Source: Laetmonice hystrix
Taxonomy: Eukaryota
DNA: 64,000 nucleotides
Reading direction: 5' to 3'
Assembly: GCA_965235115.1 (NCBI GenBank)
Contig: OZ249436.1
Span: forward strand, 24,058,001-24,122,000
Shown here: one piece after another, positions 16,033-57,361 of the stretch
How positions within the stretch are numbered: position 1 is the stretch's first letter
Layout of the letters: each line of letters opens with the position of its first letter
Translations under genes and position numbers: made by a program
The notes under the pieces: model-generated
Databases searched by the model: none
Told to the model about the DNA's origin: nothing
What the model saw: only the letters and a program-made list of their open reading frames with translations

Positions 16033-17295
16033 CCGGGTGAGTTCTCTATTTGTTCAGCCAGTGAGTGCAGGTCTACTTATTTCTTAATCCTATCACTTCT
16101 TTCAAATACTCGGCCATGGTTAATCATGCAGTGTTGGTCAGCCCCAAAAAGGTTATAACTAATATTATTTTTTTGTACACCCACGTGTACCTCCAGGGTG
16201 ACGCCATGTTGGATTTGGAGTTAGAACGGTGTCACCCATTTATTATGTATCTGTAACTGTATAACTCATGTAAATAAAGATTAAAGTACGGATGTTCCTT
16301 TAAATGCTCTACCTTGTGTAATTTTTGCTAGCTCTCCTCTTCATCCATACTCCCCACAATCAAACCACACACCATAAACAAAAGTGTTACTCAAAACTAA
16401 ACTCAAAACATAAGGACGAAAGTGGTGGACAACCCTAAGTACAGGACGAAAGTTAGAAAGTGTTATTTTAGAGCGCTGCTGCTCAAAAACCAGTGTACTG
16501 GCCGGGTGTCTTGGGCTGGTAGAGCCGTCAACACGTTTGTTGTCATCGCTTGGGCCAGAGACTGGCCGGCGATAACATCCTCATAATCTGCATTGGCTAC
16601 AATTTTATAGCCTGGGTTCGATCTGTTTGTACTTTCATTGTCACTTGTGACATCATAGTATAGTTAACTACGTATTTTGATACATAATATGTTTCACTGA
16701 CAAAAAGACAGTGCGTGCCTCGTTAAGTCAACTGTGGCTGTGACGTCATAGAGAGGACATGCAGCACAGTCGTGACGATTAACGTAGACTGCACTATTTT
16801 GCAGTCTAGCTCTCGTTTTATTAAAAGATGGATTAAAATACTACAGAAGCAGAGACTTCGAAGGTCAGTAGATAGTCTCAGAAAATTATAGCATTATAAT
16901 ACCTCTGTAAACATCACTGTAGGGCCCCTGATCCTACACAGCTTAGATTGAAGCCTGGCTGTCTAATGATTGTGATATTTAACGTCATAATCAAAGTTTT
17001 GGGAACTTTTAAATTTCCAAACAAAGCTCGCTGTATTCCAAACTATAAGGAATCTCGCTAAAAGAAAGATATCTATGGAGACCTTACGATGTGGGGAATA
17101 ATTCTGGGTACTTTTTTGTATAGGTCGTCGCGACAGATTTTGCATGGCAAGACCGGCTAGGTAGAAAAGTTTTCAGATTTTTTATACTTTTTTCGTGGGT
17201 TTTAAATGGCCATACCAAAAAGAATCCTTAAATCTATTTATTACGTCTCCCCCCAGCTGGGGGAGACGTTTTGTTTTGCACGCTGTTTCTGACCG

Positions 17296-25300: not shown

Positions 25301-26157
25301 TCCTGTCTCCATAAGCAGAGCTTTTGTTTCATCATGTTTGTATACGCTGGATCGGATATTAAACTGGAATTGAATTTCCAGTATCCTTTTCCTCTGGGTT
25401 GTTCCTCCGTCTGGTCTAAAGTTAAAGTTATCGCTGAGTGATCGGTGTATTTTGCCGGCGTTATATCTACCGAATTAACATTATCATATACATTTCTTGA
25501 CAGTAGAAAGAAATCTAACCTGCACTGTATCAAAGGCGATTTTTGTCTCCAGGTGTACCTTCTTGTATCTGGATTCTTTAATCTCCAGACATCGTCAACT
25601 TCATATTGTTCTTTAATATCATTTATTTCTTTTATAACCCGTTCTTTGAGATTTATGTTACCACCGCTTTTGTCTATTTGTTGTTGTATAATATTAAAGT
25701 CCCCTCCCATTATTATCTTTGACTCCGGTCCAACATCCATTTTTTCCAACAGGTTTCTTATGCTTTGAAAAAATTGGATTTGCTGTGGTTCCTGGTTAGG
25801 AGCATAAATATTCAGGATAGTAAATTCTTCATCGTTTATCTTCACTTTTAAAAGTACATATCTTCCATTAACATCTATATCCTCGCTCTGTATCATAAGA
25901 TCTAAACCTTTTCTGATCAAAATCATAGTGCCTCTACTGTGATTGGTTCCATGACTAGTTTTCATGACACCCTCCCACTCATTTCTCCATATGTGTTCTA
26001 ATTCCTGAGTACTAAAAGTTTCCTGAAGCAATGCAATGTCCGCTTTTTCCTTTTCGAGCCAAGTAAAAACTGCACTTCGAACTTTCTTGTCATTCAAACC
26101 TTTAACGTTAACTGATAGGAACTTAATATTTTTATCCATTTCCCTTTTCGTATACAC
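22384..26157 (-). CDS. L1/Tx1-type ORF2 (APE endonuclease, reverse transcriptase, C-terminal zinc finger), intact 1257 aa
   Basis: Endonuclease motifs NVKGL, LQET, GGDFN, RLDFFL, TDHSAI; RT motifs SPGNDG, NWRPISLLN, DFEKAFD, GVRQGDPLSP, YADD; zinc finger CTFC...HMLYRC. Confidence 0.95.
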   Translation of the reverse strand: MYTKREMDKNIKFLSVNVKGLNDKKVRSAVFTWLEKEKADIALLQETFSTQELEHIWRNEWEGVMKTSHGTNHSRGTMILIRKGLDLMIQSEDIDVNGRYVLLKVKINDEEFTILNIYAPNQEPQQIQFFQSIRNLLEKMDVGPESKIIMGGDFNIIQQQIDKSGGNINLKERVIKEINDIKEQYEVDDVWRLKNPDTRRYTWRQKSPLIQCRLDFFLLSRNVYDNVNSVDITPAKYTDHSAITLTLDQTEEQPRGKGYWKFNSSLISDPAYTNMMKQKLCLWRQDLKEVEDITQAWEFIKYKIRQETILYSKKRTQRQKDREDELLAKVRELEENLAEGNLLEYEEAKKEIENISMLKARGTILRAKARWHEHGEKSTKYFMSLEKRNFIKKHIRKLKMATGELTTDPKQILSEEKRFYEKLYSENDNSHLEITNDKFFNPKFLPKLSEKQKDSCEGKITEEECKTVMRTFKNNKSPGNDGLTIEFYKYFWDDIKQILIPCYNNGYEKQLLTVSQRQAVITLIDKGKDRLMLKNWRPISLLNTDYKIMTKVIAYRIKKVLPKIIHHNQTGYVDGRYIGDNIRQILDVMEYMDTEETPGVLLGIDFEKAFDSLNWNFMLKTMENFNFGLGVIKWVKTFYTEISACTINNGYTSGYFKLQRGVRQGDPLSPYLFILAIEVLAHVVREEKEIRGIILGDTEMKLALYADDTSGLFGDILSAKVFLQLVKEFQKCSGLKINMDKTEAMWLGSAQNNIDKPLGVKWSASIKILGVHVSHDRQYMAKANYESKVLSLKSTLNMWKMRDLTLNGRILVSKSLGLSKFEYIMSVLTVPKHIIESVNDIIWNFIWKGKKRGKIRREVLFGEYEEGGQKMLDLETRIETTRIRCLQRYFFGMEHHWKVVFNHFFTAHGGIQILVHSNLDMRSLKHLPPFHQEIMRNWFKVSQFNRKFIWNNNAIPINKNPVFNRSMFQGGIWYPEDLFKDGKTIPFEVWRNRGVEKKYYMLWRGLVSAVLKQKATPASPETPVDSALNGLVLSGKIGDKKVSYVLETTSTKIIYRMLIQKKLCRESAGKKKYNVEYHIKDETWKKIYTLYGTLWKNKKITEFQYKVLHNAVVLNPVLFKMGLKDSDLCTFCDGEKETIAHMLYRCERVNAFWEQVKHWFNNIIDDKMEISEMHVIFGNLLYSPHVTAWNGVVLLGKYYIYQSKLREQAPTLPAFLKKLRYELEVEMEITINMNKIHRFIDKWGTLWTALEHININI

Positions 26158-33237: not shown

Positions 33238-34315
33238 CTATGATGTCATAACCATGTCATCATAAGTCGTCACGGGTGCAAGATAGTACCATAGTTATCC
33301 CTACTCAGAACATGTTGGAATGGGACACCCCGGGGATGGGATCCATTGTGGTAATCTAGTTAATTAATCAACTTCAATGTGTAGTCTCCTCGACAGGTTT
33401 CAACTTTTGTCCTTTTATAGGGGATCAATGGTTTACAATGTCAATTAAATGTAACCTACAGGCAGTGTTTGCACGGTAGTTACATGTTCGTTATTTACGC
33501 AAATAAGTATATAAATGTTACACCTAACTTTGCCCCCTCCCCGAGTATGTTTACTTCCGTTGCTATGGGGGACACGGTCACCACTTCCAAATTGGCGCGC
33601 CTCGCACACGGAGGTCTTTTCTCTTTGGAATGCTTGGTAAATGCTCCCGCTGTGGTGTTTCACATGGCCAGCCCTTTGGATCCAGGTGCAAACGAGCTAT
33701 GGCAATCATCGAAGGGTATGATCGTTCAAGTCCAGAATATTTAAAATATTTAGAGGACGTGTATGCCAGGGCGGACATTATATCGCAACATTATGCAGAG
33801 GAAATGGCCACTCTTAGGGAACAACTGGCTACCGATCAAACGACCGCAACAACGCCTTTGGGTCCAACTGGCAAGCCAAGTCCGAGTCCTGATTTCGCTC
33901 CTGTCCTACAATCGGTACAGGAACGTCTTGCAAAGTTGCCAGCTTCTAACCAAGCATCATCATGGCAGCAGGCGGTCAGGGTGCCCCTCCACCACAGGTA
34001 GCACCAAGCGTGTCGGACCTGTTGACCGCCCCCTTGACCAAGGCCTTGAGCAAGCTGGCCGTCCTTGACCAAGTAGATGCAAGTAAATATAGACCGGAGT
34101 CTTATGCTCAAAAGTCTCTCCCCTTCAAAAAGCGGGAATATGCCAAAATGGATATGTTGGATTTATTTTACGGTTGGACCTGTGTTGCTGATCACTTGTG
34201 CGAGTCAGGTGAGGATATCCAGTCGTTCCTCAAACATATTAAGTTTACCACCGAGATCCTCCACTCACGGAAATTCTATGATGCGGGAGCAGTGGAGTAC
34301 AATTGTTATGTTGTA

Positions 34316-34527
34316 TAGTCTGTTCGCTCTAAGAAGAGCTCGACCTCGGCCTCATTAAAGCTGTTAGTTCATTTGGGGTAATACAGAACCACGTGAAATT
34401 TGGTCATATTCTTGAATGACAGGCGGTGATGACTTGTGATAGGCCAGCTGTGGGTAGACGGGAGGAGGGGGGCAGGTCAGAGCTTTAATGAGGCCGAGGT
34501 CGAGCTCTTCTTAGAGCGAACAGACTA
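34316..34527. mobile_element. MITE with about 47-bp TIRs and TA TSD, inserted in the DIRS gag
   Basis: TAGTCTGTTCGCTCTAAGAAGAGCTCGACCTCGGCCTCATTAAAGCT and its inverse; excision restores ...YVVDKVIEGG... Confidence 0.88.
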
Positions 34528-35771
34528 TAGACAAAGTGATTGAAGGAGGGTCGTCATCCTTTTCTCCCGATCCTTTGGGAGTTTCGCTACACTTTACACC
34601 CAATGTTATTCCAAGCGACGTGGACGTCAGCCATGGGGCCTCACTGCACCGTGCCTATATGACGTCAGGAACCTCCTCTGGTTCATCCATGCCAAGGAAA
34701 CCCCAATGGGGGAAACCTTTTGTTTCTGGGCCTAGACGTCAAGATGAAACACCGTCTGATTTTCCGCCGGACCTGTGTTTCCAGTACAACTATCGATCCT
34801 GTGCTAGAGAAGATTGTCCTAAACTCCATCTGTGCCGCAAGTGCAGAGGCAAACATCAGGCTGATGGTTGTAAAGAGAAACTGAGGGCATGATATACTTC
34901 CCGACACCATGGGCCACCCCCAGACTTCGCTTTCCACAAGAACAGTTCCCAACATGACGTCGGCTTACCCATGTCCGAGCATGTTGCTGATAGTGACACA
35001 ACTGATGAACATTCCAGAGTCGAGAAGCAATTCTCCAACACCTCACACACTTTGGTTCCGGCAAGCAGTAACCTGCATCCAACTGCATGTGATAACTTCC
35101 CAGTATTTATCGATGGTGACGACCATGTCTATAGATACACATGTACTGAGGATGGTCATGAGTGTGGCTTTACCGAGGTTCGCCTCGCTAACGACATGTT
35201 GGAGTCTGATATCAGTGTTCATACCTTTGACAATTTACTACGTGATTGTGAGTCTAATGTAGGTTGGGTACCCAACTGATAATAACCATGAGTCAATATG
35301 TTCCAATGGTTATGTTGATGTGGACAGTTGTGTCGACTACTCCCTTCCTCATGATATTTGTTATGATTCCATACATGGTTTCCACAGATATTCAAATTAT
35401 GCGACGGTATCCCAGTTCCAAGGTCTCCGATGTTTTAAGAATAGGATCTTTGATCACTATCTTGAAAACCTAAATACTTTGGCCTGTGGTCTGGCAATGA
35501 TTGACAAGCAGGCTATTTCAACGTGGACATTGTGCCTTCGGGAGTGGAGGATCTCAACCCTGCTCATGTGCATTGGTTCAATGTCAACGTGCCTATGGAC
35601 ACTGAACTTGAGCATCACATAACATTAGTACCCTGGAACTAATCCTAGTCTGGCTCGCAACCAAGCATTGGGCTCACACTTGGTCCAACCTACACGTTTT
35701 TGTGCTCAACACCGCCTGCAAATCGTACCAGCTTCTGACCACAATGTTGTTACAGTACATTTGACAATTAT

Positions 35772-37431
35772 TTGTCGGCGATAATTTCACTACATAAATA
35801 CTTTGGTGCAGACCAATCCTTCAGGGCTTCCTATTTGGTGCAATTGGTCATGAAAGGATTGGCAAGGACTCTGGGTAAAGAAGTAACTCAGAAAATGGGA
35901 TTAACCCCTAATCAGCTATTAATGATGTACCATTCCTTGAATCTTTCTGATGTCAATGTGATTACTCAGTGGACAGCACTAATGTTTTCATTCCGCACCT
36001 TACTGCGTAAGTCAAATATTGTACCCGACAACCCAAACAAGTTGGAATCGGTAGTAAAACGATGTGATATAAAATTCACCAACCAGGGTATTATGGTTCT
36101 TGTGCGCCAGTCCAAAACTATCCAAAACAAGGAAAAGACTTTGGAAATTCCAGTGAACTTCATTAAGAGTAACTGTTTCTGTGCTGCATCAATGGTTTTG
36201 ATACATTGCCACAGGTGCCCTCAACCACAAGACAGTTCTCTTTTATACTTAGTGTCAAAGGGATCTTGGAGACCCCTACTTTACAGGGATTTGTTACGTT
36301 TTTTGAAAGAGTCTGTGAAACTAATAGACCTGGGGCCTGTTTCTCGAAGGTGTCGTAAGTTCAACACTTACGCAAGGATTTACGCAAGGCATTACGAATG
36401 GCATAAGTCATGGCGTAAGATGGTTTCTCGAGAGGTACTTACGCAAGACCTAACCTGAGGACTTGGGCATAACAGGGTACTGTAATGACACACTAGATGG
36501 CGTCAAAAAGAGGTCAAATAAGTGCGTTTCCATGGCAATCTATTGTCATTGAAATAGCTTCACCAGTTCGAAGTGGCCAACACATGAGAGGGAGGTCTGA
36601 GGACAGGGGATAGAGGTGTATAAAAATCAGTCACGCGGTGGTGCATATAATCTTTCTGGGGGTAAATCAGAGGTACACATTAGAAATGAATATAAGAAAA
36701 TTGTCTCTGACATAAGATGTTTGTCCATTATTTTGAACAAGAGTAGCCCATAGTGAGACTATAGGGTATGATAGTGCATTCAAATGATACAAATTCATTA
36801 ATATGGTACCAAATGTCGTTATCAGTAAAGCGATAAGTTTATATCTCTCTCATTTTCCTGTTCTATAGTTTATGTTCGATTACGTCAGATTCATGAAAAT
36901 AATGTTCATCGTTTTTCAGTGTAGCAAGCCAAATGATGCTACATTGAGGAAAATCAAAGTAAAATCAAGTTTACTGCTAGCACGTTTCTACCCATAATTT
37001 GGACTTATATTGAGTATACATGTCTTTTAACCTGCCCAATGTTTTCCTGCTTCACTGGTCAATGGTCACTTTCCACAAACCACTCAGAATCGGTTGCGTA
37101 CATCACCTCGCTGGTCGTCGTAACTTTAGACCTGATTTACGCAACGGCGCAAAGTTGCGCAGCCGTCGAGAAACACCAGAGACAGGATACGCATGGCGTA
37201 ACTCATACGACACTTTCGAGAAACAGGCCCCTGGATCCCAAATTTGTGGGCCTACACTCTATGAGGAGAAGCAGAGCAGGTTTTCTCCACGCTTTAGGTA
37301 TGCCCCTTGTGGATATCATGACAGTAGGGGACTGGCAGTCTCTGGCCGCATTGTCATACCTTGTCACTCCTATCAGTCGCAAAAGACAGATTGAATCCTT
37401 GGTAGGATCTGAACTGGACAAACTGCTATAA
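35772..37431 (+). pseudogene. Tyrosine recombinase of the DIRS-like element, split by a MITE
   Basis: Removing 36333-37230 plus one CTG gives ...LKESVKLIDLDPKFVGLHSMRRSRAGFLHALG...GDWQSLAALSYL in one frame. Confidence 0.85.
36333..37230. mobile_element. Harbinger-like non-autonomous element, CTG TSD
   Basis: GGGCCTGTTTCTCGAA / TTCGAGAAACAGGCCC with CTG at 36330-36332 and 37231-37233. Confidence 0.88.
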
Positions 37432-42157: not shown

Positions 42158-43932
42158 TGAAACGGTCCTGGCATCTGTCAGATACGGTCAGTTGCCTTTT
42201 AGAGCCTCCCAGCGAACTTGCCATTAAGTGTCCGGCAAAAGAATTTTACCTGACTATGTTTGAGTTGGTCCTGATCTTTTGACAGTTTTTATTTTCCGTC
42301 CTTGTCCTTTTTACCTGTAACAGAGTATGCTCTTCTAGTCCAAACTCCATCCAGTGCCCGACGGGCGCCATGTTTGTTTACTATCGAGGGGAAGTATGAA
42401 TCGCAAGGCATGCTTGTTTTGTTTGTTTTTTTGTTTTATGCATTATATTGGCTTCCGAGACAGAGTATGCGCCTGTTTATTTATCTTAGACAAGATTACC
42501 AAGTTTAAAGTTAAAAACAGTTAGCTTTAGGAGTTTTAGTTTCTGGATTTGGTGCCAGCCAATGAGATGCTCACCCAACTTGGAGGGCGCGTCATCAACT
42601 TGGCTCGGTGCCAACGCACGTGGCCCAGGCCGCGTGGTCCTGGCGCCTATATAAGGGGGCCACAACAAGCCCCGGGAGGGAGACACTTACAAACCCCTCA
42701 CAACTCAACAACTCACTACCATACTCACTCTACTGCCAACGACCACGTACCCTACCAACAAACCCGACTGAGTGCGGACCCAGCCCCGGTGTCGCGGTCT
42801 GTTTTCTCCGCGGTCTGAAATCTCCGGGAGGTTGGCTGCAGAGTCGCGTATATTTCTATCGTTCTCGGTAAACTATCCGAGATATCAGGCCAGGATGAAG
42901 TCTCAAGTAATAACCCTTTTCTCCTCCGTCAGTTTTGGTCCGCAATTTGCCTATCCAGGCTGTCGTTTATTACTGTTTGGAAGAAAACTCTACCGCCTAT
43001 CAGCTAGCAGACGACCGGAGGTGTGAGCTCAAACTGCGACACGCACGTGCTCACTTGGTTAAGTTTGGCCTCTAAACAATAGGAAACCCTGCACCCGGAG
43101 ATTACAGACCGGCGGAGAAAACAGACCGCGACACCGGCTGAGCGCTCACCCCACAACCGACCTACCAACCCGCGTGCTACAATACCCTGCTACTATAGGC
43201 CTAACACAATTACCAACTAAACAACAGGTACGAGTATATTTTCTTTGCCATGTCTTGCAAACCGCGACCTTTGGTCGCAAGATTTAGGGAACATTTGGAG
43301 ATGATGGTTCGGACTAGGGCCAGTGACGATTAAGTTATAGGGTAGAATATATGGTATAACCACGTCGGGTATAACATTAGTCTGATTAGACGGCGTCTGG
43401 TATAATTGAACATTTTAAGCTCTGAGTAAGTGATCTCGTTTGATGACTCGTTGGATTTCAACTGATTTTAAGTTTAACGACCGTTTGTACAGGCACCGAG
43501 ATGACGCTGTCTGTGGTCAGTAGACCTAGGTATTAAGTTGTGTGTGAGTGGAAGCTGAGAGCGGACGCTCCCCCGCCCAGCGCCCAGTGCAGGGCCGTAC
43601 GTAACCGGGCCACCTGTTAGGGATTAGTGAGGCCCGCGGTGGGCTCGGTGTGTGTGAGTCGAGGGTGCATGTTTAGGCCTGCATGCGGGTTTGCATTTTA
43701 TTGTCTCGTCATGTTTCTGTTCGATTATTTGTTTGATTGTCAATTAAACTGTTTAAATTGTACCACTGTCTCCAAGGTCTCACCCTTAGTGTTAATGCCA
43801 TCCAGTGATCCGAACCCCGTTGTCCCCCGCTTAATTGGCCTTATTCATTAATAGATAGAGTACTAAAATGAACACAACGAGAAGTACGCCCAATATGCCC
43901 CACACCCCTATTCGAGCACGAAAACCGCTACA
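42158..43932 (+). repeat. 5' LTR (contains a MITE insertion)
   Basis: TGAAACGG...CCGCTACA; matches 55929-57361 except for the MITE, a 6-bp indel and a few substitutions; TATA-like CTATATAAG near 42647. Confidence 0.95.
42790..43133. mobile_element. Ginger-like MITE in the 5' LTR, CCGG TSD
   Basis: TGTCGCGGTCTG / CAGACCGCGACA with CCGG duplicated; the 3' LTR has the empty site with a single CCGG. Confidence 0.9.
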
Positions 43933-43936
43933 TTTT

Positions 43937-43956
43937 TGGTGGCCGTGAACCAGGAT
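43937..43956 (+). promoter_or_regulatory. Primer-binding site, tRNA-His-like
   Basis: TGGTGGCCGTGAACCAGGAT just after the LTR resembles TGGTGCCGTGACCAGGAT, the complement of an animal tRNA-His 3' end as I recall it, with two extra bases. Confidence 0.6.
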
Positions 43957-44517
43957 GGCTAATTACACTGGTGAGATCACAACTAATGCTCATTAATTGA
44001 GACTCTATTCCAGCTGGGATACTTAGTTGTACGTTGAAACAGACTCTGACTCAGACTTACTTAGTCTTAGATAACTAGGGAACTGATAACGACCAACTGA
44101 TACAGGAACTAACTGAGTATAGTGAAAACAATAGACAGAAGTAGGCCTAAAGAACAGACGACTATACCATGTATGAGGCTGACATGCATTTGACGACAGT
44201 GCCACTAACTAACTAGCACATTATACACCCAGTCATCAGACATGCACTTAACGACAGTGCCAATAACTAACTATAATATAGCACATTATACGCCCAGTCA
44301 TAACCGTACAGGTTTTCTACTGTTTAACGAGTAACATAGATTATACTTAGAATTAGACGGAGAACAGGAAGGTTGGCTATAACAATAACTTAGTATAACT
44401 GAAAGTTAGAATGAGATGGTGGAAAGCAAGGCTGGATGACTGATTAGAGGGCCCTAAGATTGCGTTATAGTTAGGTTACGGAGTACCATATGACATTGGG
44501 CATAGGACAGGTGGTTG

Positions 44518-46791
44518 ATGGCGACCGCCCAATATCTTGGCTCAGCATTAATCTTAGCAAGTGTAGCTTGGTGGTTTGGTGGAAGTGAGGAGACCTTGAA
44601 GCTAGGGATAGGTTTTGAAAGGCCGAGGAGCAGTGAGGATACAGGAGTTTTTGGGAGTTGGGTTGACAAAGTTGGACTTATTCTTGATGGTCTCATTTTG
44701 CTGGTACTTTGGATAGCTTTTGGCCCAGGTTTGAACTCCTTCAGACAGTGCTGCAGGACCCTTGTTAGAAAGTTTGGTAGAGTGGTAAAATTCATTGTTC
44801 TCTGGGTAATCATGGATGGTCTGAAGTGGGGAATATCTTATGTGCGGAGTTTGTGGTCGGGCTCCGAGACGGACACATCTGACAGTACGGCGGCTAGCAC
44901 TGACGATTCAGGCGGCCAGCCTGGGCTAACCCCCGAGGAAGTGCTGCCACCTGGTGGCTTACACCCACACTATACAGCCAACCTTCCCAGGCGTGCAATT
45001 CATGACTACCGACAGGGGCCGCCCGATTATATTGCTACATGTACTCAGTATGGTGAAAACATTACCAGACCTGTCAATAACGCCCCTAGTGATTTGAGGG
45101 TCCACTGGGCTCCCCATGGCCAGAGGGAGGAGAGGCAGGAATTGTTTGATTCTTCCCGGGGAACACCTCCTAGAGGTATTTTTGGGTCTGCCAACGGTGA
45201 CAATGACAAAGACCACCGATCAGTATGGAACCATTTCCCAGAAGTAAGGGTCAGTGAAGGAAATACCCCTTCTGTAGGTGACAGGTATGAGTTGGGTGTA
45301 AACAGGCCACTACTCCGAGCCCAGAGTTACCCCACCCAGCGACAGCAACCAGATCATTATACCGACAGTCAGGCATACTCTCACAGGGCAGATAGATCTC
45401 CCTACGTTGGCTACCATTCACATGCCACACCCACACGGAATAAATACAATGGGGAAGGGAATCACCCTGCCAACAGCTGTGAATCCTACCACAGCCACGT
45501 GACTAACACTTATACCAGGCCCATGACAGAAAGGTATGCTGGGGATAACCTACACATTGCAGCTGATTTAAGTCGATACCCAGGGACTGGCAACCCTACA
45601 CCATTGGTTGATAGCCATTACCGTAGTCCGGCCTCCCACTGGAACGCTGACAATGACAGGTCAGCATATGACTATGACAGGAGTGTGAATGAGGCTAACA
45701 GGTGGGTCTATGACACTGTCCCAAACGGGCAGGCTGACATTTACAGTAAGTACCCTGACCACAGACCAAACTCACATGTACCTCCCAGCCCACAGGCCCA
45801 GAGATACGCCAGTTATTGTACACCCACACAGGAGTTGTTTGAGACAAGTCCCTACATGAGCTTATCAGGTGCAGGGAATGCCCAAAAACACTGGGGCGAG
45901 CCCCCACCTGCTACAGCCACTAACCAGTTGAGTCCAATACCCCCACAGCCACCATCCCCTGACCTGAGCAGACGGAAGCAGAAGGAGCCCATGAAATACA
46001 ATGGGAAGACTGATTTCGGGGATTATTTAGGGCATTTTTCAGCTATTGCCCACTGGAACCTGTGGACCTATCATGAACAAGGAATGCAGCTGGCATGTAG
46101 CTTAATTGAGGGAGCACGTGAGGTACTGAGTACTGTGCCTAACCATCTTCAATATGATTATGACTGTCTCATAAGTGCGCTGCAAAGGAAGTACAGCCCT
46201 CCTGGCCGTGAGTCACAATTCGCAGTGGAGTTTATGAACCGTATATGTAAACCTGCCGAATCTGTAGCTGAATATGGACATGCCCTTCAGCTGTTGGCAA
46301 AACGAGCGTACCGGGGCACCACCATTGCCGAGCCAGTCATGATAGACATGTACATCAAAGGGCTACCAGAGCTCGCTATGCGGCGCCATGTCCACTCTAC
46401 TAAGCCAGTGACTTTGGCTGAGGCAATTACCAATGCGGTCTCTTACCAGGCTTTTGACAGAAGCCAGGTCACTGTACCGCCACCGAAACCCCAACCTGTG
46501 AGGCACGTGGCTCCCGTGCCAGACGCCGGCCCAACTGAACAACAGGGCAGTTTTCAAAGAACTACCCAGGCAGCCCAACGGGGATACAGCCCACAGTACA
46601 GTGACCCGGGCCCCCGCCAGTTTCAGTCCAGACGCGATCGGTCCACTGTTAAGTGCTACCGTTGCCACCAGTTTGGACATTACTCCAGAGAATGTCCAGA
46701 AAATGTTTATGTAGGCAAACAGAGGTCTGTCCCAACCCAAGCACCCCAGAATGCCCAAGATAGGGGACGGCAAAACCATTTAAACGAATAA
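44518..46791 (+). CDS. gag: Gag with hydrophobic N-terminal extension, capsid domain and CCHC zinc knuckle
   Basis: Capsid-like KEPMKYNGKTDFGDYLGHF...; knuckle CYRCHQFGHYSREC; first ATG at 44518. Confidence 0.9.
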   Translation: MATAQYLGSALILASVAWWFGGSEETLKLGIGFERPRSSEDTGVFGSWVDKVGLILDGLILLVLWIAFGPGLNSFRQCCRTLVRKFGRVVKFIVLWVIMDGLKWGISYVRSLWSGSETDTSDSTAASTDDSGGQPGLTPEEVLPPGGLHPHYTANLPRRAIHDYRQGPPDYIATCTQYGENITRPVNNAPSDLRVHWAPHGQREERQELFDSSRGTPPRGIFGSANGDNDKDHRSVWNHFPEVRVSEGNTPSVGDRYELGVNRPLLRAQSYPTQRQQPDHYTDSQAYSHRADRSPYVGYHSHATPTRNKYNGEGNHPANSCESYHSHVTNTYTRPMTERYAGDNLHIAADLSRYPGTGNPTPLVDSHYRSPASHWNADNDRSAYDYDRSVNEANRWVYDTVPNGQADIYSKYPDHRPNSHVPPSPQAQRYASYCTPTQELFETSPYMSLSGAGNAQKHWGEPPPATATNQLSPIPPQPPSPDLSRRKQKEPMKYNGKTDFGDYLGHFSAIAHWNLWTYHEQGMQLACSLIEGAREVLSTVPNHLQYDYDCLISALQRKYSPPGRESQFAVEFMNRICKPAESVAEYGHALQLLAKRAYRGTTIAEPVMIDMYIKGLPELAMRRHVHSTKPVTLAEAITNAVSYQAFDRSQVTVPPPKPQPVRHVAPVPDAGPTEQQGSFQRTTQAAQRGYSPQYSDPGPRQFQSRRDRSTVKCYRCHQFGHYSRECPENVYVGKQRSVPTQAPQNAQDRGRQNHLNE

Positions 46792-46819
46792 AAGCTGGAT
46801 TCCGGCCCAGGAGTCCAGC
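46779..46819 (+). promoter_or_regulatory. Putative -1 ribosomal frameshift signal between gag and pol
   Basis: Slippery heptamer T TTA AAC (46779-46785) in the gag frame, followed 8 nt later by stem-loop GCTGGATTCC-GGCCCA-GGAGTCCAGC; the -1 frame joins pol once the piggyBac-like insert is removed. Confidence 0.8.
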
Positions 46820-46864
46820 ACAGACTGATTACAGTATAGGGCAAACTAACAACTGTCAGGTTAA

Positions 46865-47975
46865 CCATAGAAATGTACTGGGAGGGAAGACCAACTCTCT
46901 CTTTTTTCGCTTGGGACGCTAGTAGTCTTATGCGTTTGCAGCGCCCTCCAGTGGTTATGAGACCCGTAACGTCATCTGCCTTGGCCCAAGTGTAAACATG
47001 GGAAGGACCGATCGTCTATTGTGTCCCTGGATGCACAAATTATCAAAATAGAGCAGGACGAAAGGCAGGGAGGGTTAATTAATTACTGCAGTAGACTTAT
47101 CTAGCCCGCACAGACAAACATATGCATTTCAAACGACTGACACCGAATTATGCACTCGCGCCAGTTCAAGCGGGCTTGGCCGCAGCCAGGCGCAGGCTTG
47201 GGTCAACCCCCAATAAGAACGGCCCATTAGAAATACTAAATCACAACAATAATTTAAGAATCTATCCAGGCCGGATTTTAGAGTAATCCTCGATCTATAA
47301 ATGTATATGACATTCACATCTGTTACTTAATCTTTTCAAAATTTACCCAAAAAAACTGTCAGATTACGAGGGTACGAAATTGTAACGTCACAAACTTTGC
47401 CGATCTCCGGCTATGACAGTGCTTGGATTGAGAAAGGAGGGACCTTGCCAAACCATTCTAAGTCTATGACATTGTTTGGTTCAATATTCTATCCCTTTAT
47501 ATCACGTTTCGACGTCCTTCCTTGTGTATTTTAGTAGTTAGGTGCGTTTCAACTGCCGAAGCGAAGCGCCGTCCGCCATTTTATTTAGGGCCCGTTATGA
47601 TCACATTCCATTGTGACCCATTGTGACGTAGCCCTATTGTGCATTGTTCCTGACGTCGCTGATTGGGTCTCTCAATCACGGAGTGGACAGGGCCCGATAA
47701 AATCGATTTTTAAAATATCTAAGAGTTTGCTAGGGCACCTAGATTTTTTCCAAGCCTTTGCTGCATTCTGCTCCACTGCCTATACACTTTATCCATAATC
47801 AAGTTGATGTTTAAATCCAAGAGAGTCTAGGCCTAATGTCGCCGTCCTATGCCGAGCGTTGCACCCGAGCACCGGTCTCATAACCACATGGGGGCGCTGC
47901 GAACGACCTAACATATTTGAGCGATAATTGGGGCAGGAAAGAGAGTTAGCCTTCCCTCCAGTACAGTTCTATGGG
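46865..47975. mobile_element. piggyBac-like non-autonomous element, TTAA TSD, interrupting the start of pol
   Basis: CCATAGAAATGTACTGGGAGGGAAG / CTTCCCTCCAGTACAGTTCTATGGG; TTAA at 46861-46864 and 47976-47979; excision restores ...CQVNPIIRNRTNVRSDNRF... Confidence 0.85.
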
Positions 47976-47979
47976 TTAA

Positions 47980-50900
47980 CCCAATAATACGGAACAGGAC
48001 TAATGTGCGTAGCGATAACCGTTTTGTGTGTCAGAATGATGTGATGAGTGGGCGCCAGAATCATCCTGTTAAGTCTCCAACTCCAACTGGTGATAACCAT
48101 CTTGTGGACATTGTGAATCATGTGCCTCGTAGTAGGTGCCGTAATACTAATAGCCCTACCGAGGATAGATATCCCAAAACTAGTGGTGACAGGTGCGTTG
48201 TTGATGCTGTAGAGTCTCAGACTCCAGCTGGTGATACCCATTTAGTGGACAAAGTAAATCAGACTCATAGTGGTAGATGCTGGGATAGCCCTACTGAGGA
48301 CAAATATTTCAAGACTAGTGGTGACAGGTGTTTCAAAACTAGTGGTGACAGGTGCGTTGTTGTTGATGCTGTAGATTCTCAGACTCCAGCTGGTGATACC
48401 CATTTAGTGGACAAAGTAAATCAGACTCATAGTGGTAGGTGCTGGGATAGCCCTACTGAGGACAAATATTTCAAGACTAGTGGTGACAGGTGTTCCAAAA
48501 CTAGTGGTGACAGGTGCGTTGTTGATGCTGTAGAGTCTCAGATTCCAGCTGGTGATACCCATTTAGTGGACAAAGTAAATCAGACTCATAGTGGTAGGTG
48601 CTGGGATAGCCCTACTGAGGACAAATATTTCAAGACTAGTGGTGACAGGTGTTCCAAAACTAGTGGTGACAGGTGCGTTGTTGTTGATGCTGTAGAGTCT
48701 CAAACTCCAGCTGGCGATACCCATTTAGTGGACAGAGTAACTCAGACTCATAGTGGTAGGTGCTGGGATAGCCCTACTGAGGACAAATATTTCAAGACTA
48801 GTGGTGACAGGTATTCCAAAACTAGTGGTGACAGGTGCGTTGTTGATGCTGTAGAGTCTCAGATTCCAGCTGGTGATACCCATTTAGTGGACAAAGTAAA
48901 TCAGACTCATAGTGGTAGATGCTGGGATAGCCCTACTGAGGACAAATATTTCAAGACTAGTGGTGACAGGTGTTTCAAAACTAGTGGTGACAGGTGCGTT
49001 GTTGTTGATGCTGTAGATTCTCAGACTCCAGCTGGTGATACCCATTTAGTGGACAAAGTAAATCAGACTCATAGTGGTAGGTGCTGGGATAGCCCTACTG
49101 AGGACAAATATTTCAAGACTAGTGGTGACAGGTGTTCCAAAACTAGTGGTGACAGGTGCGTTGTTGATGCTGTAGAGTCTCAGATTCCAGCTGGTGATAC
49201 CCATTTAGTGGACAGAGTAACTCAGACTCATAGTGGTAGGTGCTGGGATAGCCCTACTGAGGACAAATATTTCAAGACTAGTGGTGACAGGTGTTCCAAA
49301 ACTAGTGGTGACAGGTGCGTTGTTGATGCTGTAGAGTCTCAGATTCCAGCTGGTGATACCCATTTAGTGGACAAAGTAAATCAGACTCATAGTGGTAGGT
49401 GCTGGGATAGCCCTACTGAGGACAAATATTTCAAGACTACTGGTGACAGGTGTTCCAAAACTAGTGGTGACAGGTGCGTTGTTGATGCTGTAGAGTCTCA
49501 GATTCCAGCTGGTGATACCCATTTAGTGGACAAAGTAAATCAGGCTCATAGTGGTAGGTGCTGGGATAGCCCTACTGAGGACAAATATTTCAAGACTAGT
49601 GGTGACAGGTGTTCCAAAACTAGTGGTGACAGGTGCGTTGTTGTTGATGCTGTAGATTCTCAGACTCCAGCTGGTGATACCCATTTAGTGGACAGAGTGG
49701 GTCATGGTAATAGTGATAGGTGCCGTGATAGCCCCACTCAGGACAGATATCTCAGAAATCGTGGTGACAGGTGTTTCACAACTAGTGAAGGCACATGTTT
49801 GAAAACTGGTAGTGACTGGAGCAGTGGTGAAATTGTTGAGTGTCAGCCTGCAGTCGACTGTGAATCTTATGTTGAACCACCATGTTGGGAGGAGGCTAAC
49901 TGGGACCCAACAGATGGAACCCATGACAATTCTACTAATGACAGATGTTGTCACACAAACCATGACACGGCTGTCGATAACTGTGGTAGGCTGAACGATG
50001 ATGGGCAAGCCACTGCTGGTTTGACAGTCCAGGATGAGGACAAGGAGCTCTATGATATTGATGGTTCAGTAGACGATAGAGAACAGGAAAGACTAGATGA
50101 TGGGGAGAGTTATGTCAGGACGCTGAGTGATGACAGCTGGTATGTGCATGGAACAGTAGGTGACAAAACCATTGAATGGTTAATAGATTCAGGCGCAGGG
50201 CCGAACCTACTTGATATTGGGGTGTATAATACTTTGGACTCACGAACCCGCCCACCTTTGATGGAATGTGCGACAAATTTACTGGCTGCTAATGGGACCA
50301 GGCTTAAGGTTTATGGACAGATTGGTGTAGAAGTGAAGTTCGGCACAATGTACTTTGACATCCCAGTGGTGATAGTTAACTTAGGAGGATTACAAGGTAT
50401 CTTGGGTAATCGATTTATCCGCTCTGCTGAGGAGGTGACATTCGACCTTCGAAGGGGAACAATGACTATAGGTGACCATATAGAGAATTTACATGAGAGA
50501 GCAGGTGATCACAGCTGCTACATTAGGTTAGAACAGTCAGTGGAAGTGCCAGGCAATCACGAGATCCAGGTGGTGGGAAGAGTCGGTCAAAACTGGCCGC
50601 TTGCCACCCACAACAGAGGGTTGATAGAGGCTACGAGTGATTTCAAACACAGGACTGGCCTGATAATTCCAAAATCGTTGGTGAGAGTGAGACATGGGAT
50701 GGTCATGGTTACTTTGTCTAACTTTCATGACACTAGTGTTCATGTAAAGGAGGGCATGGTTGTGGGCACACTGTCACAAGTTGAATGTGTGAGACGCATT
50801 TCCTCTGAAAAGGTCAATATCAAAACAACTAGGTCGGTTGGTGATCTACCTGAACATCTGCAGCACTTGATAGATGTAAACAAATTGACAGCAGAACAGA

Positions 50901-53900
50901 CAGGTCTGCTCTGTGGCGTGGTACATGACAATAAAGACTTGTTTGCTACACCGGAGGGGCCTGTTGGCCGCACTGGTCTAGTAAAACACACCATCAACAC
51001 CGGAGATTCTAGGCCAATCAAAAGACCCCCACGTAGATTCCCTGCCACACAGCAGCAGCAAGTTCAGGAAGAAATTGACAAAATGATGGGGCAAGGTATT
51101 ATTCAAGAAAGTGACAGCCCATGGGCCTCTCAGGTAGTATTAGTCAGGAAGAAAGATGGAAGTACCAGGTTTTGTGTCGATTATAGATACTTAAATGCAG
51201 TGACTAAGAAGGATGCCTATCCTCTTCCAAACATTACTGACTGTATGGATGCACTAGGGGGCGCCACCTGGTTTTGTACACTGGATTTGGCCAGTGGATA
51301 TTGGCAGGTAGAAATGGATGCACGTGATAGGGAAAAAACTGCATTTTCCACCAGGAAGGGTCTGTACGAGTTCCGCGTTATGCCATTCGGTTTAACCAAT
51401 GCCCCGGCCACATTCGAGCGTTTGATGGAGCGCGTACTGAGGAGCCTCCAATGGGAATTATGCCTGGTGTATCTGGACGATATAATTTTATTCTCCGCTA
51501 CATTCGAAGGGGCTGTCCAAAATTTGCAGATGGTACTCGGGCGCCTACGGCAAGCTGGCTTAAAATTGAAGGCCACAAAATGTGCTCTGATGAAACGGCA
51601 GGTGGCCTTCCTGGGCCACATCGTTGATGGTAATGGGAGTACACTGTGATCCCTCAAAAGTGGAAGCCGTGCGCGAGTGGGAAACCCCAACTACGGTGAC
51701 TGACATCAGAAGTTTCTTAGGGTTGGCCTCGTATTATAGGAGGTTTGTTCATAAGTTTTCTACCATAGCAGCCCCACTAACTGAGATGACTAAGAAGGGT
51801 CAGCCCTTCGAGTGGACTGAGGCTTGTGAATCTGCTTTCCAGGAGTTGAAACAGAAACTGACCGAGGCTCCTGTATTAAGCTATCCCTCACAACTTGATG
51901 GTGACACGTTCATACTAGATACAGACGCGAGTGACAGCGGCATCGGCGCGGTACTTTCTCAAGTTCAAGATGGCCGGGAGAGGGTAATTTCTTATGCTAG
52001 TAGGATGTTGTCTGACTCACAAAGGCGGTATTGCGTGACCTACAGGGAACTGCTGGCTGTGGTGGTCTTTGTTAAACAGTTCAGGCACTATTTGTTGGGC
52101 CGCAAATTCCGAATTAGAACCGACCACGCATCTTTAAAGTGGCTGTCAAAGTTTAAAGACGCAGAAGGGATGGTGGGACGGTGGATAACTTACTTAAGCA
52201 CCTTCAACTTTGATTTGGAACACAGGGGAGGAGCACTACACAGCAATGCAGATGCACTGTCCCGCAAGACGCCGAAAAAATGGTTGCTGGCCTGCAAGCA
52301 GCAAACGTGTGCAGACTGCCCTGTGATGCCAGAAGGCAAGTCAGAAGCCTTAAGGCCAGAGGCCTCGTACAGCTCAGAGACTGCGGAGGTGATAGTTGCC
52401 CCTAACAATACTGTCAGCCAACTTGCTGATGACGTGTCTGATGTTGAGACAGCACCCAAACTCCATGCAAACGACTGCAACTTTGGTACCCCTGTAACCC
52501 GGGTGGCCATGCTTAGCATGCAGGACAGTGGTATCCAGCCAGGTGACAGGCAGCACCCTGTGATGACCCAACAGGTCCGCTTGATTCCTGTCACTGACAA
52601 CCTGTCAGAACAGTCCCCCACTGATCTCAGACCAAGGGTGATGGCCATAACTGACCAAAATGGTGGCCAGCCACCTGACACTCCCACATGTAATTGGGTG
52701 GATGCTTTATTGAGGGCAGATCTAGCAAAAGTACAAACTGATGATGCTGTGATCAGCAAGGTACGGCAGTGGAAGATAGCAGGTGAAAGGCCAGACCGCC
52801 CAAGGTTGCAGGCAGAAGGTGACCTTGTGAGAGCTCTGTGTGAGCAGTGGGCTAGTTTGGAGATGAAGGAGGGTGTACTCTATAGAAGAAAACGTGCTCG
52901 GGCCAGGGGTAGCACTACTGAGACTTTGCAACTTGTTGTACCCCAGAAATTAAGGCGACAAATTTTTCAGGAGGTGCACTCTTCGAGAGTTGGGGGTCAC
53001 CTAGGGATCAATCGCACTGTTGACAGTGTTCGCCGCCGGTTTTACTGGCCAGGATGCAAAACTGACCTTAAGTTGTGGTGTCAACGATGTACCGCCTGTG
53101 CACAGATCAAGCCTGGGCCCAGATTCAAAGCTGCCATGCACCACGTGCCCACTGGCTCCAGGTTTGATCGGGTATTTATGGACATTTTGGGAGAGTTGCC
53201 AGAGACAGAGAGAGGGAATAAGTATGTACTAGTGGTGACCGATGGGTTCACCAAATGGACACAGGCCCTTCCATTGAGAGACCAGACGGCCCAAACGATA
53301 GCCGATGCGCTCATGGTCAATGTGTTCAGCCTTTTTGGAGTGCCAAGACAGATCCATACGGATCAAGGGAGAAACTTCGAGTCGAACCTGTTTAAAGAGC
53401 TGTGTGCCTTACTAGGGATAGAAAAGAGCCGGACTACCCCATACCATCCACAATCAGATGGTCAAACTGAACGGTTCAACCGGACACTCCAGCAGATGCT
53501 GAAAGCTTATGTAAGGGAATGCCGCGATGACTGGGATGATCACTTGCCATATGTTATGATGGCCTATCGCTCCACCGTCCATGATAGCACTCGTACAACA
53601 CCAAATTTAATGTTTCTGGGCACTGAGAATATACTCCCCATCGATTTAACAATGGGCCCACCCCCGCAAGAACAGTCCCCACAGTGCCCCATAGAGTACG
53701 TAGAATGGGTAAGACAAGTGATTCTTACAGCACATGAGGCAGCCAGGAAAAATCTAGGGAAGAGTACGGCCCGTCAAAAACGAACTTATGACTTGCGTGC
53801 AAAACCAACCATCTACGGTATTGGAGATTTTGTTTGGAGGTGGTATCCACCCTCTGCCAACTGTAAATTAGGAAAAGGCTGGACGGGGCCATATAAGATA

Positions 53901-54185
53901 GTTGGTTGCCCAAATAACTTAAATTATATGATTCAGATAGAGAGAGGCAGTAGGATAGTTAGGGTTCATGTAGACGACCTGAAACCCTACAATGGGGATC
54001 CACCCTCAGGCTGGTCTGAGCCTGACACTGACAATGACAGTACTGACGCCCAGCCTGAATCCCCTGCTGACGAGTCCACAGATGTTCCTAATAGCCAACA
54101 TGACCCTGAGGGCAACACAGAACCCCCAACACAGAATCGTCACAGCCAACGCAGGAGGAAGCCAACACAGCGCCTTGACCTATAA
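47980..54185 (+). pseudogene. pol: Gypsy pol (tandem repeat, protease, RT, RNase H, integrase), one frameshift near 51635
   Basis: Protease LIDSGA; RT RFCVDYR, LDLASGYWQ, YLDD; RNase H DTDAS, TDH; integrase HHCC, TDQGRNF, GPY. An extra G in AATGGGAGTACAC splits ORFs 48005..51649 and 51624..54185. Confidence 0.93.
48070..49815 (+). repeat. In-frame coding tandem array, 159/162-bp unit (53/54 aa), about 9 near-perfect plus 2 degenerate copies
   Basis: Unit HSGRCWDSPTEDKYFKTSGDRCSKTSGDRCVV(V)DAVESQIPAGDTHLVDKVNQT; TGGGATAGCC recurs at 48281, 48443, 48602 and onward. Confidence 0.97.
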
Positions 54186-54263
54186 CAATCCTATCTTGAC
54201 CTAACCAACTACACACAATAACTCAATTATCACATCCTAAACTGACTTTGTTATATTTACAGG

Positions 54264-55337
54264 ATGCCGAGGTCACGACATGAGTGCCGTGACTGTCTGC
54301 TACCATTTAACAGCAGACAAGACCTGTGGGCCCATCGACAACAGCATCATGGTGACCCAGCTTACCAGTGCCCCCTATGCAGATATATCAATAGCTCCAG
54401 GAGTCACATGCTACTAGTTCACCTTCCCGACCGGCACAACGTCCACAGCATGACTGCCAATGACATCGCTCTGGTGGACCAAGGCGAGCCAGCTCAACAG
54501 TGCCCCACCCAGCTGCCCTCTCCACACCGACACCGACATCGCCGTAACTCCCTTGGCAGACACAGGGAATACAACCCCAGCCGACCCACATCAAGAGAGA
54601 TGGCGACATCCCGCCCACGACAGCCTACACCATCAGCTTCCTCGAACCCACTACCACCACGGCCCAGCCCCCGGCCAAGCCAAACAACAGAAGGGAGTGA
54701 GGACCCCAACCTGCAGCGGACCGACCCATCTCCAGGCTTAGGCAGCCCACCTGACATCACGTTGGGCAGCCCACCAACAAGCAGAGCCCCCGCACAGGAG
54801 CGTCACCGGGACGTGCCCATCCCAACAGTAACGAGCCAACGAGAAGTAGAGGTCCAGACAGAGGACCCAAAGCCAGACACGTCAACCTGCCCCACCCCAG
54901 TCACTGCCAGGCTCGACATGGGCGAGTGGCAACCAATGGCCGCCGTCCTGTTGGTCAGGACGAGGACGACCATCACCACCCACCCCAACGGGGGTACCAC
55001 CACAGAAATCCTGAGGGACTTCTTACTCCCAGAATCATCCCTGCAGGGCCCGACCCACCCCACCGCCACAGCTCGCCCACAAACTCCGGATTCAGCAAAC
55101 CAGTACGAGGGGAATAGCACCTGTTCGTCGATCCTGCCCCCAAGGAGGCACGCCAGGAGTCGGCCCATCGCCCCAACGCCAGAGACCCCCGCCACCCCAG
55201 CCTCTGCCAGACATCCACCTGCCCAGCTGTCCGCCTCATCTTCATGCAGTTCGCCCTGCAGTGGCTGCAGGACCCCAGCACTGTCACCTCGTAACCCGCC
55301 AGCCACCTCTGGTTGGACAACTGAAGAGGAGGACTAG
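54264..55337 (+). CDS. ORF3 of the Gypsy element: two N-terminal C2H2-like zinc fingers and a Pro/Ser/Thr-rich tail
   Basis: CRDC-x12-HRQQHH and CPLC-x13-HLPDRH; open 357 aa between integrase and PPT; preceded by CTGAC...TTTACAG acceptor-like sequence. Confidence 0.75.
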   Translation: MPRSRHECRDCLLPFNSRQDLWAHRQQHHGDPAYQCPLCRYINSSRSHMLLVHLPDRHNVHSMTANDIALVDQGEPAQQCPTQLPSPHRHRHRRNSLGRHREYNPSRPTSREMATSRPRQPTPSASSNPLPPRPSPRPSQTTEGSEDPNLQRTDPSPGLGSPPDITLGSPPTSRAPAQERHRDVPIPTVTSQREVEVQTEDPKPDTSTCPTPVTARLDMGEWQPMAAVLLVRTRTTITTHPNGGTTTEILRDFLLPESSLQGPTHPTATARPQTPDSANQYEGNSTCSSILPPRRHARSRPIAPTPETPATPASARHPPAQLSASSSCSSPCSGCRTPALSPRNPPATSGWTTEEED

Positions 55338-55409
55338 CCCACTTTTGAAGATAATAGTTTTAAGAAAGGTTTAAATTGTCACTATGGTCATCATGATCAT
55401 TGGTAAGCG

Positions 55410-55870
55410 TATTGTAAGTGTTACCAGGATGTTTTATCATGTTGTGAAGCAATGCTCGGTAAGTGCATTTATGTTTAGAAGCATCACTTCTTGCGGGAGT
55501 GTTTGTTTTCAAGAGGTGGATGACATTACTGAGTGTATAGTATAGTTAAGACAGTTTATTTGTAAGTGTTACCAGGAGGTTTCATCATGTTGTGAAGCAA
55601 TGCTCGGTAAGTGCATTTATGTTTAGAAGCATCACTTCTTGCGGGAGTGTTTGTTTTCAAGAGGTGGTTCACATTGCTGAGTGTATAGTATAGTTAAGAC
55701 GGTTTATTTGTAAGGGTTACCAGGAGGTGTCATCGTGTTGTGAAGCAATGCTCGGTAAGTGCATTTATGTTTAGAAGCATCACTTCTTGCGGGAGTGTTT
55801 GTTTTCAAGAGGTGGATGACATTGCTGAGTGTCTAGTATAGTTAAGACGGTTTCTTGTAAGTAGTGACAG
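55410..55870. repeat. 148-bp tandem repeat x3 in the Gypsy 3' UTR
   Basis: TTGTAAG(T/G)GTTACCAGGA recurs near 55412, 55560 and 55708, with a partial fourth start near 55856. Confidence 0.9.
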
Positions 55871-55928
55871 GAAATTTTATCATGTAAGTAAGCAATGCGA
55901 GGACGCATTAGTCCAAGGGGGGGGGTAA

Positions 55929-57361
55929 TGAAACGGTCCTGGCATCTGTCAGATACGGTCAGTTGCCTTTTAGAGCCTCCCAGCGAACTTGCCATTAAGT
56001 GTCCGGCAAAAGAATTTTACCTGACTATGTTTGAGTTGGTCCTGATCTTTTGACAGTTTTTATTTTCCGTCCTTGTCCTTTCTACCTGTAACAGAGTATG
56101 CTCTTCTAGTCCAAACTCCATCCAGTGCCCGACGGGCGCCATGTTTGTTTACTATCGAGGGGAAGTATGAATCGCAAGGCATGCTTGTTTTGTTTGTTTT
56201 TTTGTTTTATGCATTATATTGGCTTCCGAGACAGAGTATGCGCCTGTTTATTTATCTTAGACAAGATTACCAAGTTTAAAGTTAAAAACAGTTAGCTTTA
56301 GGAGTTTTAGTTTCTGGATTTGGTGCCAGCCAATGAGATGCTCACCCAACTTGGAGGGCGCGTCATCAACTTGGCTCGGTGCCAACGCACGTGGCCCAGG
56401 CCGCGTGGTCCTGGCGCCTATATAAGGGGGCCACAACAAGCCCCGGGAGGGAGACACTTACAAACCCCTCACAACTCAACAACTCACTACCATACTCACT
56501 CTACTGCCAACGACCACGTACCCTACCAACAAACCCGACTGAGTGCGGACCCAGCCCCGGCTGAGCGCTCACCCCACAACCGACCTACCAACCCGCGTGC
56601 TACAATACCCTGCTACTATAGGCCTAACACAATTACCAACTAAACAACAGGTACGAGTATATTTTCTTTGCCATGTCTTGCAAACCGCGACCTTTGGTCG
56701 CAAGATTTAGGGAACATTTGGAGATGATGGTTCGGACTAGGGCCAGTGACGATTAAGTTATAGGGTAGAATATATGGTATAACCACGTCGGGTATAACAT
56801 TAGTCTGATTAGACGTCGTCTGGTATAATTGAACATTTTAAGCTCTGAGTAAGTGATCTCGTTTGATGACCTGTTGGATTTCAACTGATTTTAAGTTTAA
56901 CGACCGTTTGTACAGGCACCGAGATGACGCTGTCTGTGGTCAGTAGACCTAGGTATTAAGTTGTGTGTGAGTGGAAGCTGAGAGCGGACGCTCCCCCGCC
57001 CAGCGCCCAGTGCAGGGCCGTACGTAACCGGGCCACCTGTTAGGGATTAGTGAGGCCCGCGGTGGGCTCGGTGTGTGTGAGTCGAGGGTGCATGTTTAGG
57101 CCTGCATGCGGGTTTGCATTTTATTGTCTCGTCATGTTTCTGTTCGATTATTTGTTTGATTGTCAATTAAACTGTTTAAATTGTACCACTGTCTCCAAGT
57201 TGTTGGTCTCACCCTTAGTGTTAATGCCATCCAGTGATCCGAACCCCGTTGTCCCCCGCTTAATTGGCCTTATTCATTAATAGATAGAGTACTAAAATGA
57301 ACACAACGAGAAGTACGCCCAATATGCCCCACACCCCTATTCGAGCACGAAAACCGCTACA
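55929..57361 (+). repeat. 3' LTR (1433 bp) preceded by polypurine tract
   Basis: Purine run AAG9 at 55915-55925, then TGAAACGG...CCGCTACA. Confidence 0.95.

Follow-up and report, generated by a model that had tools for sequence, protein, structure and literature searches.

A Conserved, Predicted Membrane Anchor and a Likely Second Start Codon in the Gag of Related env-less Ty3/Gypsy Elements

Introduction

Gag proteins of Ty3/Gypsy elements are usually regarded as having no matrix domain for membrane targeting. A gag frame that opens with a stretch hydrophobic enough to span a membrane, in an element that carries no envelope gene, raises the question of what such a segment does at the front of a capsid protein. 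One such frame lies in the window analyzed here (the whole 64-kb stretch of DNA), and an earlier note described its opening residues as a module of several transmembrane (TM) segments, a Cys-Cys pair, a polybasic stretch, and an amphipathic helix, for which a membrane-anchored Gag or a small fusogen-like module was proposed. The reading preferred in this report, to which a probability of about 0.6 is assigned, is that a 98-codon in-frame extension of gag, kept in six families, is likely a membrane anchor, and that the gene likely yields two Gags, of which the long one starts at Met1 and is inserted into the membrane, and the short one starts at Met99. An open frame, a hydrophobic helix, a charge bias, a conserved methionine, and a depletion of methionine are observed directly in the sequences, and are presented below together with the alternative readings that each of them touches.

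The Host Element and Its Surroundings

The extension is housed in a 15.2-kb Ty3/Gypsy LTR element that runs from LTR to LTR over 42158–57361 (Table 1). Its assignment follows from TG...CA LTR ends, a target-site duplication, a primer-binding site, which we take to be tRNA-His-like, a polypurine tract (PPT), and a gene order of gag followed by pol as PR-RT-RNase H-IN. The two LTRs are 98.9–99.7% identical over the parts that flank the 5' LTR insertion. This copy is defective, because its pol is interrupted by a TTAA-flanked insertion and by a frame break, yet it is young by LTR identity. The element is env-less, as the earlier note had stated: an errantivirus-type env was not found in ORF3, which reaches a maximum Kyte–Doolittle (KD) value of 0.77 and returns solely C2H2-like matches, and no plus-strand internal ORF within the element other than gag bears a TM segment.

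Table 1. Coordinates of the features of the element and of its Gag (positions within the window).
Feature	Position	Strand	Remarks
5' LTR	42158..43932	+	TG...CA; target-site copy ATAT directly upstream
Inverted-repeat insertion in 5' LTR, ~352 bp	42786-43137		
Primer-binding site	43937..43954	+	Begins TGG; read from sequence
Met1, first in-frame ATG	44518..44520	+	T at -3, weak start context
H1, residues 6-20, short hydrophobic stretch	44533..44577	+	Signal-like or weak first TM; in 4/6 families
Trp48 and predicted TM helix 52-70	44659..44727	+	Internal Asp57, then GPG
Cys78-Cys79	44749..44754	+	Pair not conserved
Basic amphipathic helix, residues 72-98	44731..44811	+	Predicted cytosolic side
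Met99 and conserved amphipathic helix 99-117	44812..44868	+	Likely short-Gag start; strong start context
PPG...Y motif, residues 143-152	44944..44973	+	Conserved; 57% mean identity
Low-complexity hypervariable spacer, residues 153-484	44974..45969	+	20% mean identity
Capsid domain, residues ~485-650	45970..46467	+	Ty3_capsid, Retrotrans_gag, and PNMA matches in relatives; 74% identity
CCHC zinc knuckle (nucleocapsid)	46651..46701	+	
TTTAAAC heptamer, gag end	46779..46785	+	Likely -1 gag-pol frameshift site (putative function)
TTAA-flanked high-copy inverted-repeat insertion in start of pol	46861..47979	.	
pol: tandem repeats, PR, RT, RNase H, IN	47921..54185	+	Two frames, break near 51600-51650
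ORF3: C2H2-like fingers and Pro-rich tail	54246..55337	+	Without TM; not env
3' LTR	55929..57361	+	Polypurine tract before, ATAT after

Several further features of the element can be recorded. The insertion in the 5' LTR has 44-bp terminal inverted repeats and a second copy at 15696–16036 (78% identity), and the insertion within pol is an inverted-repeat sequence of ~1.1 kb and very high copy number, with TTAA on both flanks and ends that are presumably piggyBac-like. Upstream of the protease, pol holds about ten in-frame, Cys-bearing tandem repeats of 159/162 bp (53/54 aa; 48150–49773), and the stretch between protease and RT (50480–50800), which has no Pfam match, resembles a dUTPase-like spacer present in certain Gypsy clades. 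ORF3 follows the integrase and encodes a pair of C2H2-like fingers with a Pro/Thr-rich tail, and the 3' untranslated region carries three tandem repeats of 148 bp (55412–55855) ahead of the PPT. Elsewhere in the window, an env-like gene at 980–2613 (+), in two overlapping frames, encodes a signal-like N-terminus, RQRR ahead of a hydrophobic stretch that resembles a fusion peptide, a predicted long helix, a C-terminal TM segment (KD 1.97), and a basic tail; it has no Pfam or PDB sequence match and a low-confidence fold, and hints that this genome also contains an env-bearing element. Two LINE-type ORF2s, along with fragments similar to a tyrosine-recombinase retroelement, all labeled by reading their translations, lie at 6672–8621, 22384–26157, and 33528–37431. 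The repeat content points to an invertebrate animal as the probable host.

The N-Terminal Extension of Gag

The gag ORF encodes 757 aa from 44518, and all four peptides singled out in the earlier note are in frame at 44518–44870, well upstream of the capsid, as claimed; farther along, the zinc knuckle passes the Pfam cut-off, and the Ty3_capsid match is weak. Hydropathy of TM grade occurs solely at residues 52–70 (KD 19-mer, 2.22), with the rest of Gag peaking at 0.81; of the plural TM segments of the earlier note, one is convincing, and the first and the fourth of its segments top out at KD 1.19 and 1.47. The 25 residues that follow the TM segment contain six K/R and carry a net charge of +6, as compared with −1 for the residues before it in the window protein. 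These basic residues are strung along an amphipathic helix (hydrophobic moment 2.36) rather than packed into one run. Because the basic charge follows the TM segment, an N-out/C-in orientation with a cytosolic capsid is predicted, a topology read from hydropathy and charge alone.

The open frame and its hydrophobicity have to be weighed together. When the bases of codons 1–98 were shuffled 20,000 times, a KD of 1.6 was reached in 19% of the shuffles, so that hydrophobicity by itself is unremarkable in the T/G-rich DNA of the extension; a frame both open and equally hydrophobic arose in 0.015%. The other two plus-strand frames of the region hold 10 and 7 stops, and one minus-strand frame is also open. 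An AlphaFold model built from six sequences places helices at residues 3–28, 45–68, and 72–113 with low confidence (pLDDT 59, pTM 0.26). The module was unmatched in Pfam, PDB sequences, and the ESM Atlas, and a Foldseek comparison of this low-confidence model with viral models gave a best E of 1.2; such blank database results do not establish novelty. Farther downstream, a PPxY late-domain-like motif (PPDY, residues 168–171) was considered as evidence of budding and set aside, its position not being conserved.

Conservation across Relatives

Relatives were sought with residues 485–735 (capsid/nucleocapsid) as the query, thereby excluding the extension itself. Ten Gag proteins of 62–67% identity were returned, nine of which open with a stop-free TM extension; the tenth, P0005, starts directly with the conserved Met, and its capsid matches that of the TM-bearing P0006 at every residue. 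Together with the window protein, these relatives form six families, in whose representatives the frame is stop-free for 63–103 codons after a Met in every case. Among 57 cluster members listed, the TM segment is kept in 38 of the 39 that include the region, the remaining 18 being without the helix motif and mostly fragments. On this basis, a membrane-anchored Gag, one of the two proposals of the earlier note, gains support as a prediction.

Sequence conservation within this open frame is uneven. Mean between-family identity amounts to 26% for the extension (16–70%), 62% for helix 99–117, 57% for the PPG...Y motif, 20% for the spacer, and 74% for the capsid. Long-type extensions are homologous to one another (z 3.8–14.6 against block shuffles), and the short-type extensions (P0003, P0006) match most of the long ones weakly (z −0.6 to 3.9). 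A W-x8-[D/E/N] spacing, in which the Trp precedes the intramembrane acidic or amide residue by nine residues, is ungapped in all six family representatives and seen in 35 of 45 sequences, and the short hydrophobic stretch H1 ahead of the TM segment is missing from two families. In the eight clade proteins tested, net charge is +3 to +6 on the C-terminal side of the TM segment and −1 to +4 on the N-terminal side; for P0006, it is +4 on both.

Within families, variants per residue number 0.065 in the extension, 0.078 in the spacer, and 0.030 in the capsid; the extension is about as variable as the spacer and twice as variable as the capsid, which counts against strong constraint. Where full-length members show indels, these comprise whole residues, a pattern that gene calling favors. 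Contigs from three runs of one sample add further variation: a related contig has 5–11 gap letters over 44244–44749/44803, with their placement within that region not given, and contigs over 43940–47900 hold 40 listed differences, none in the extension, and 239 more; the 35 listed differences that fall in gag, a biased subset, comprise 24 nonsynonymous, 10 synonymous, and 1 stop. DNA of the relatives was not found among metagenome contigs or viral contigs, and several of the families may come from few host genomes, with a host breadth that is perhaps narrow. A profile search for longer proteins gave only known clade members, with 8 matches among 8,000 scored candidates.

Comparison with Small Fusogens

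The second proposal of the earlier note, a fusogen, fares less well. On this account, the extension would be a FAST/sORF2-like fusogen or protrusion organizer fused to Gag, which allows capsids to pass from cell to cell without Env. A TM segment followed by a basic stretch is the generic pattern of the positive-inside rule, so that this part of the likeness is not specific to fusogens. In favor of the proposal, a short ectodomain (21–54 residues before the Trp), a single TM segment, a juxtamembrane basic region, and an amphipathic helix, with an N-out/C-in orientation by hydropathy and charge, follow in the order given for sORF2 and FAST proteins in the available text of 10.1101/2025.03.14.642691. 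Moreover, the element has no env, and the short-type families have one TM segment without a signal-like H1. According to the same text, Drosophila elements of the MDG1 group carry sORF2 as an ORF of its own, 63–107 aa long and usually myristoylated; it shares with the window module an env-less Gypsy host and a 5'-terminal place in the coding region. The window module differs in being fused to Gag, in having neither a myristoylation motif (no MGxxxS/T start) nor a cystine noose, and in a dicysteine that is not conserved.

The cysteines bear most directly on the proposed p10 resemblance. The p10 FAST protein carries a cystine noose and a palmitoylated dicysteine, as described in the available text of PMC12945298. 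In the window protein, no Cys precedes the TM segment, and the Cys-Cys pair, although present at residues 78–79 as the earlier note had recorded, occurs in 1 of 45 sequences, namely the window's own. Some Cys lies within the last 30 residues of the extension in 25 of the 45, and a juxtamembrane Cys is absent from the other 20. Size is likewise out of keeping, since FAST proteins have about 100–200 aa and the FAST/sORF2 group about 60–200 aa as stand-alone proteins, whereas the module is joined to about 650 residues in a 757-aa Gag. A search for a stand-alone short form gave three proteins, all of which look like broken copies, and the spacer-like variation of the extension also speaks against a fusogen, although a free module may arise through later proteolytic release. 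The p10-FAST resemblance depends on the unconserved pair, and the fusogen reading is weakly supported and, on balance, improbable.

Two Start Codons and the Glyco-Gag Layout

The case for two Gags is made by the methionines. The residue equivalent to Met99 is Met in 44 of 45 sequences, and the residue preceding it is Thr or Ile in all 45; an A at −3 follows, because the codons of both amino acids start with A. In the window, Met99 has this A together with G at +4, in contrast to the context of Met1 (Table 1). Methionine accounts for 1 of 524 residues in the extensions against 123 of 3,806 downstream (Fisher p 3.7e-6), or 1 of 459 extension residues when two close families are merged. The window extension has one out-of-frame ATG, as compared with 4–9 per equal length in the remaining gag, and its shortage of ATG in any frame is borderline (p 0.05 by dinucleotide shuffle, 0.18 by codon shuffle). 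The Met depletion is ambiguous: it would be expected if ribosomes can bypass Met1 and initiate at Met99, and likewise of an untranslated leader, although such a leader would not be expected to remain stop-free in the gag frame across six families. Between the TATA-like box and Met1 lie 23 ATGs, so plain cap scanning would reach neither start, and the route to them would have to involve internal entry, shunting, or splicing.

With that proviso, the depletion and the start contexts fit a layout of the glyco-Gag type, with an upstream start, a TM leader, and an internal start, both starts being predicted as likely used. MLV glycoGag is CUG-initiated and mainly a type II protein whose Gag part is lumenal and glycosylated; a type I form has been reported as well (PMC12530543, available text). 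As far as that text goes, an in-frame upstream start adds a TM leader before the ordinary Gag start, the TM segment lies at the leader junction, and two forms result, as would be the case for the window gene. A true analogue would have a type II long form with its Gag part in the lumen, acting as an accessory factor rather than as a capsid, and H1 and the TM segment together could give a topology other than the predicted one. However, the basic residues come after, not before, the TM segment in most families, the charge bias predicts C-in, and the 757 residues of the window Gag hold one N-glycosylation sequon, with the sequons common to relatives located solely in the capsid. Initiation is at ATG rather than CUG, the predicted capsid is cytosolic, the element is an env-less Ty3/Gypsy rather than a gammaretrovirus, and no sequence homology of the window Gag to MLV glycoGag was detected. 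A true analogue is quite unlikely; of the parallel drawn in the earlier note, the layout gains some support, and the charge bias predicts the opposite topology.

An equally unlikely alternative is that the long form alone is made, with Met99 as a structural residue and the whole Gag as an obligate membrane protein that assembles at the ER like the Gag of the intracisternal A particle (IAP). Met1 is indeed the first in-frame ATG, and IAP Gag reaches the ER membrane via SRP without translocation (PMC3945221, citing Fehrmann 2003, in the available text); the avoidance of Met in the extension and the A at −3 of Met99 would, however, be left unexplained. Mouse IAP remains instructive as an env-less LTR element with an SRP-targeted, untranslocated Gag and with particles that collect in cisternae, as the available texts of PMC3945221 and PMC9412291 describe. 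It differs from the window element in being betaretrovirus-like with an env-bearing ancestor, and these texts do not describe a full TM helix or a second start for it. For Ty1, the same sources describe entry of Gag into the ER in the absence of a TM segment.

Least probable of all is that the extension is an untranslated leader, AUG-poor and T/G-rich, perhaps with a packaging or entry signal and a hydrophobic open frame that arose by chance: AUG depletion, the 19% of shuffles that reach KD 1.6, and spacer-like variation speak in its favor, but it is the gag frame only that is stop-free and Met-initiated in six of six divergent families, openness and hydrophobicity coincide in 0.015% of shuffles, the W-x8-[D/E/N] spacing is ungapped, and full-length members differ by whole-residue indels, though gene calling favors these.

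The best reading is that two Gag isoforms are likely made, the long one anchored in the membrane with a cytosolic capsid, in a glyco-Gag layout with the opposite predicted topology and IAP-like membrane targeting. No report of a TM-extended Gypsy Gag was found in the literature searched, which excluded Repbase, Dfam, GyDB, most subscription papers, and supplements, so that prior annotation is possible; PMC13524379, in its available portion, mentions TM segments solely for Env.

The Wider Gag Family

When 1.84 billion representatives were scanned with HMMER, 4,190 relatives emerged, of which 150 were listed. Among 131 proteins with at least 40 residues before the capsid, 14 reach KD ≥ 1.5 ahead of it: ten belong to the window's clade, the others being P0105, P0150, P0116, and the borderline P0113. 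In a quick capsid tree of 153 rows, from which 4 of 157 were left out for short capsid matches, the window's clade has an SH-aLRT of 95, and P0105 with P0150, and P0116, fall in two other supported groups. The extensions of these three proteins have little or no similarity to that of the window (z at most 2.7) and are not Met-depleted.

Helix-start Gags of the family (P0015–P0157) share with the window protein the capsid family, a disordered spacer, and, in many, a Trp-bearing amphipathic start, whereas most lack a TM segment before the capsid; the N-terminal Trp-bearing amphipathic helix pattern occurs in 31 of the first 157 Gags. Three sisters of P0105/P0150 (P0100, P0138, and P0149) begin with MG, a myristoylation-like start. 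A recurrent targeting of the Gag N-terminus to membranes by differing means would account for this distribution. A profile of the outgroup helix scored best at the conserved Met in two of six families. Cluster look-ups for ten helix-start outgroup Gags, which constitute a weak test, found mostly singletons without longer forms; the outgroup starts come from automatic gene calling, by which extensions could be missed.

Proposed Mechanism and Significance

If two Gags are made, the hydrophobic segment would direct the long form to the ER, and insertion would be N-out/C-in in accordance with the positive-inside rule, so that spacer, capsid, and nucleocapsid would remain cytosolic. The short form would open with the amphipathic helix and may bind membranes peripherally, and a long Gag-Pol, produced through frameshifting, would like the long Gag be integral to the membrane. 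Anchored Gag, as the minority partner, could then co-assemble with short Gag and so tether or nucleate capsids on the ER or plasma membrane, a role akin to that of a matrix domain; the capsids might afterwards bud into a vesicle or an internal compartment. The buried acidic residue of the TM segment may promote TM–TM association or rapid turnover. A bolder version, offered as speculation with the odds well against it, is that env-less Gypsy elements have repeatedly, in at least three lineages, built a TM module into Gag, whose minority membrane-spanning capsid subunit would oligomerize through its short ectodomain and polar TM segment and let capsids bud or pass between cells, as an envelope substitute inside the capsid protein.

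The feature described here, a conserved Gag with a predicted TM anchor and probably two starts, shared by related env-less Gypsy elements, looks previously unannotated. It bears on how env-less elements exit from cells, a question that sORF2 has reopened. A clade with a predicted TM-anchored Gag, beside sister lineages in which Gag opens with just an amphipathic helix or else has a myristoylation-like start, would provide a natural series for studying how membrane targeting of capsids was acquired.
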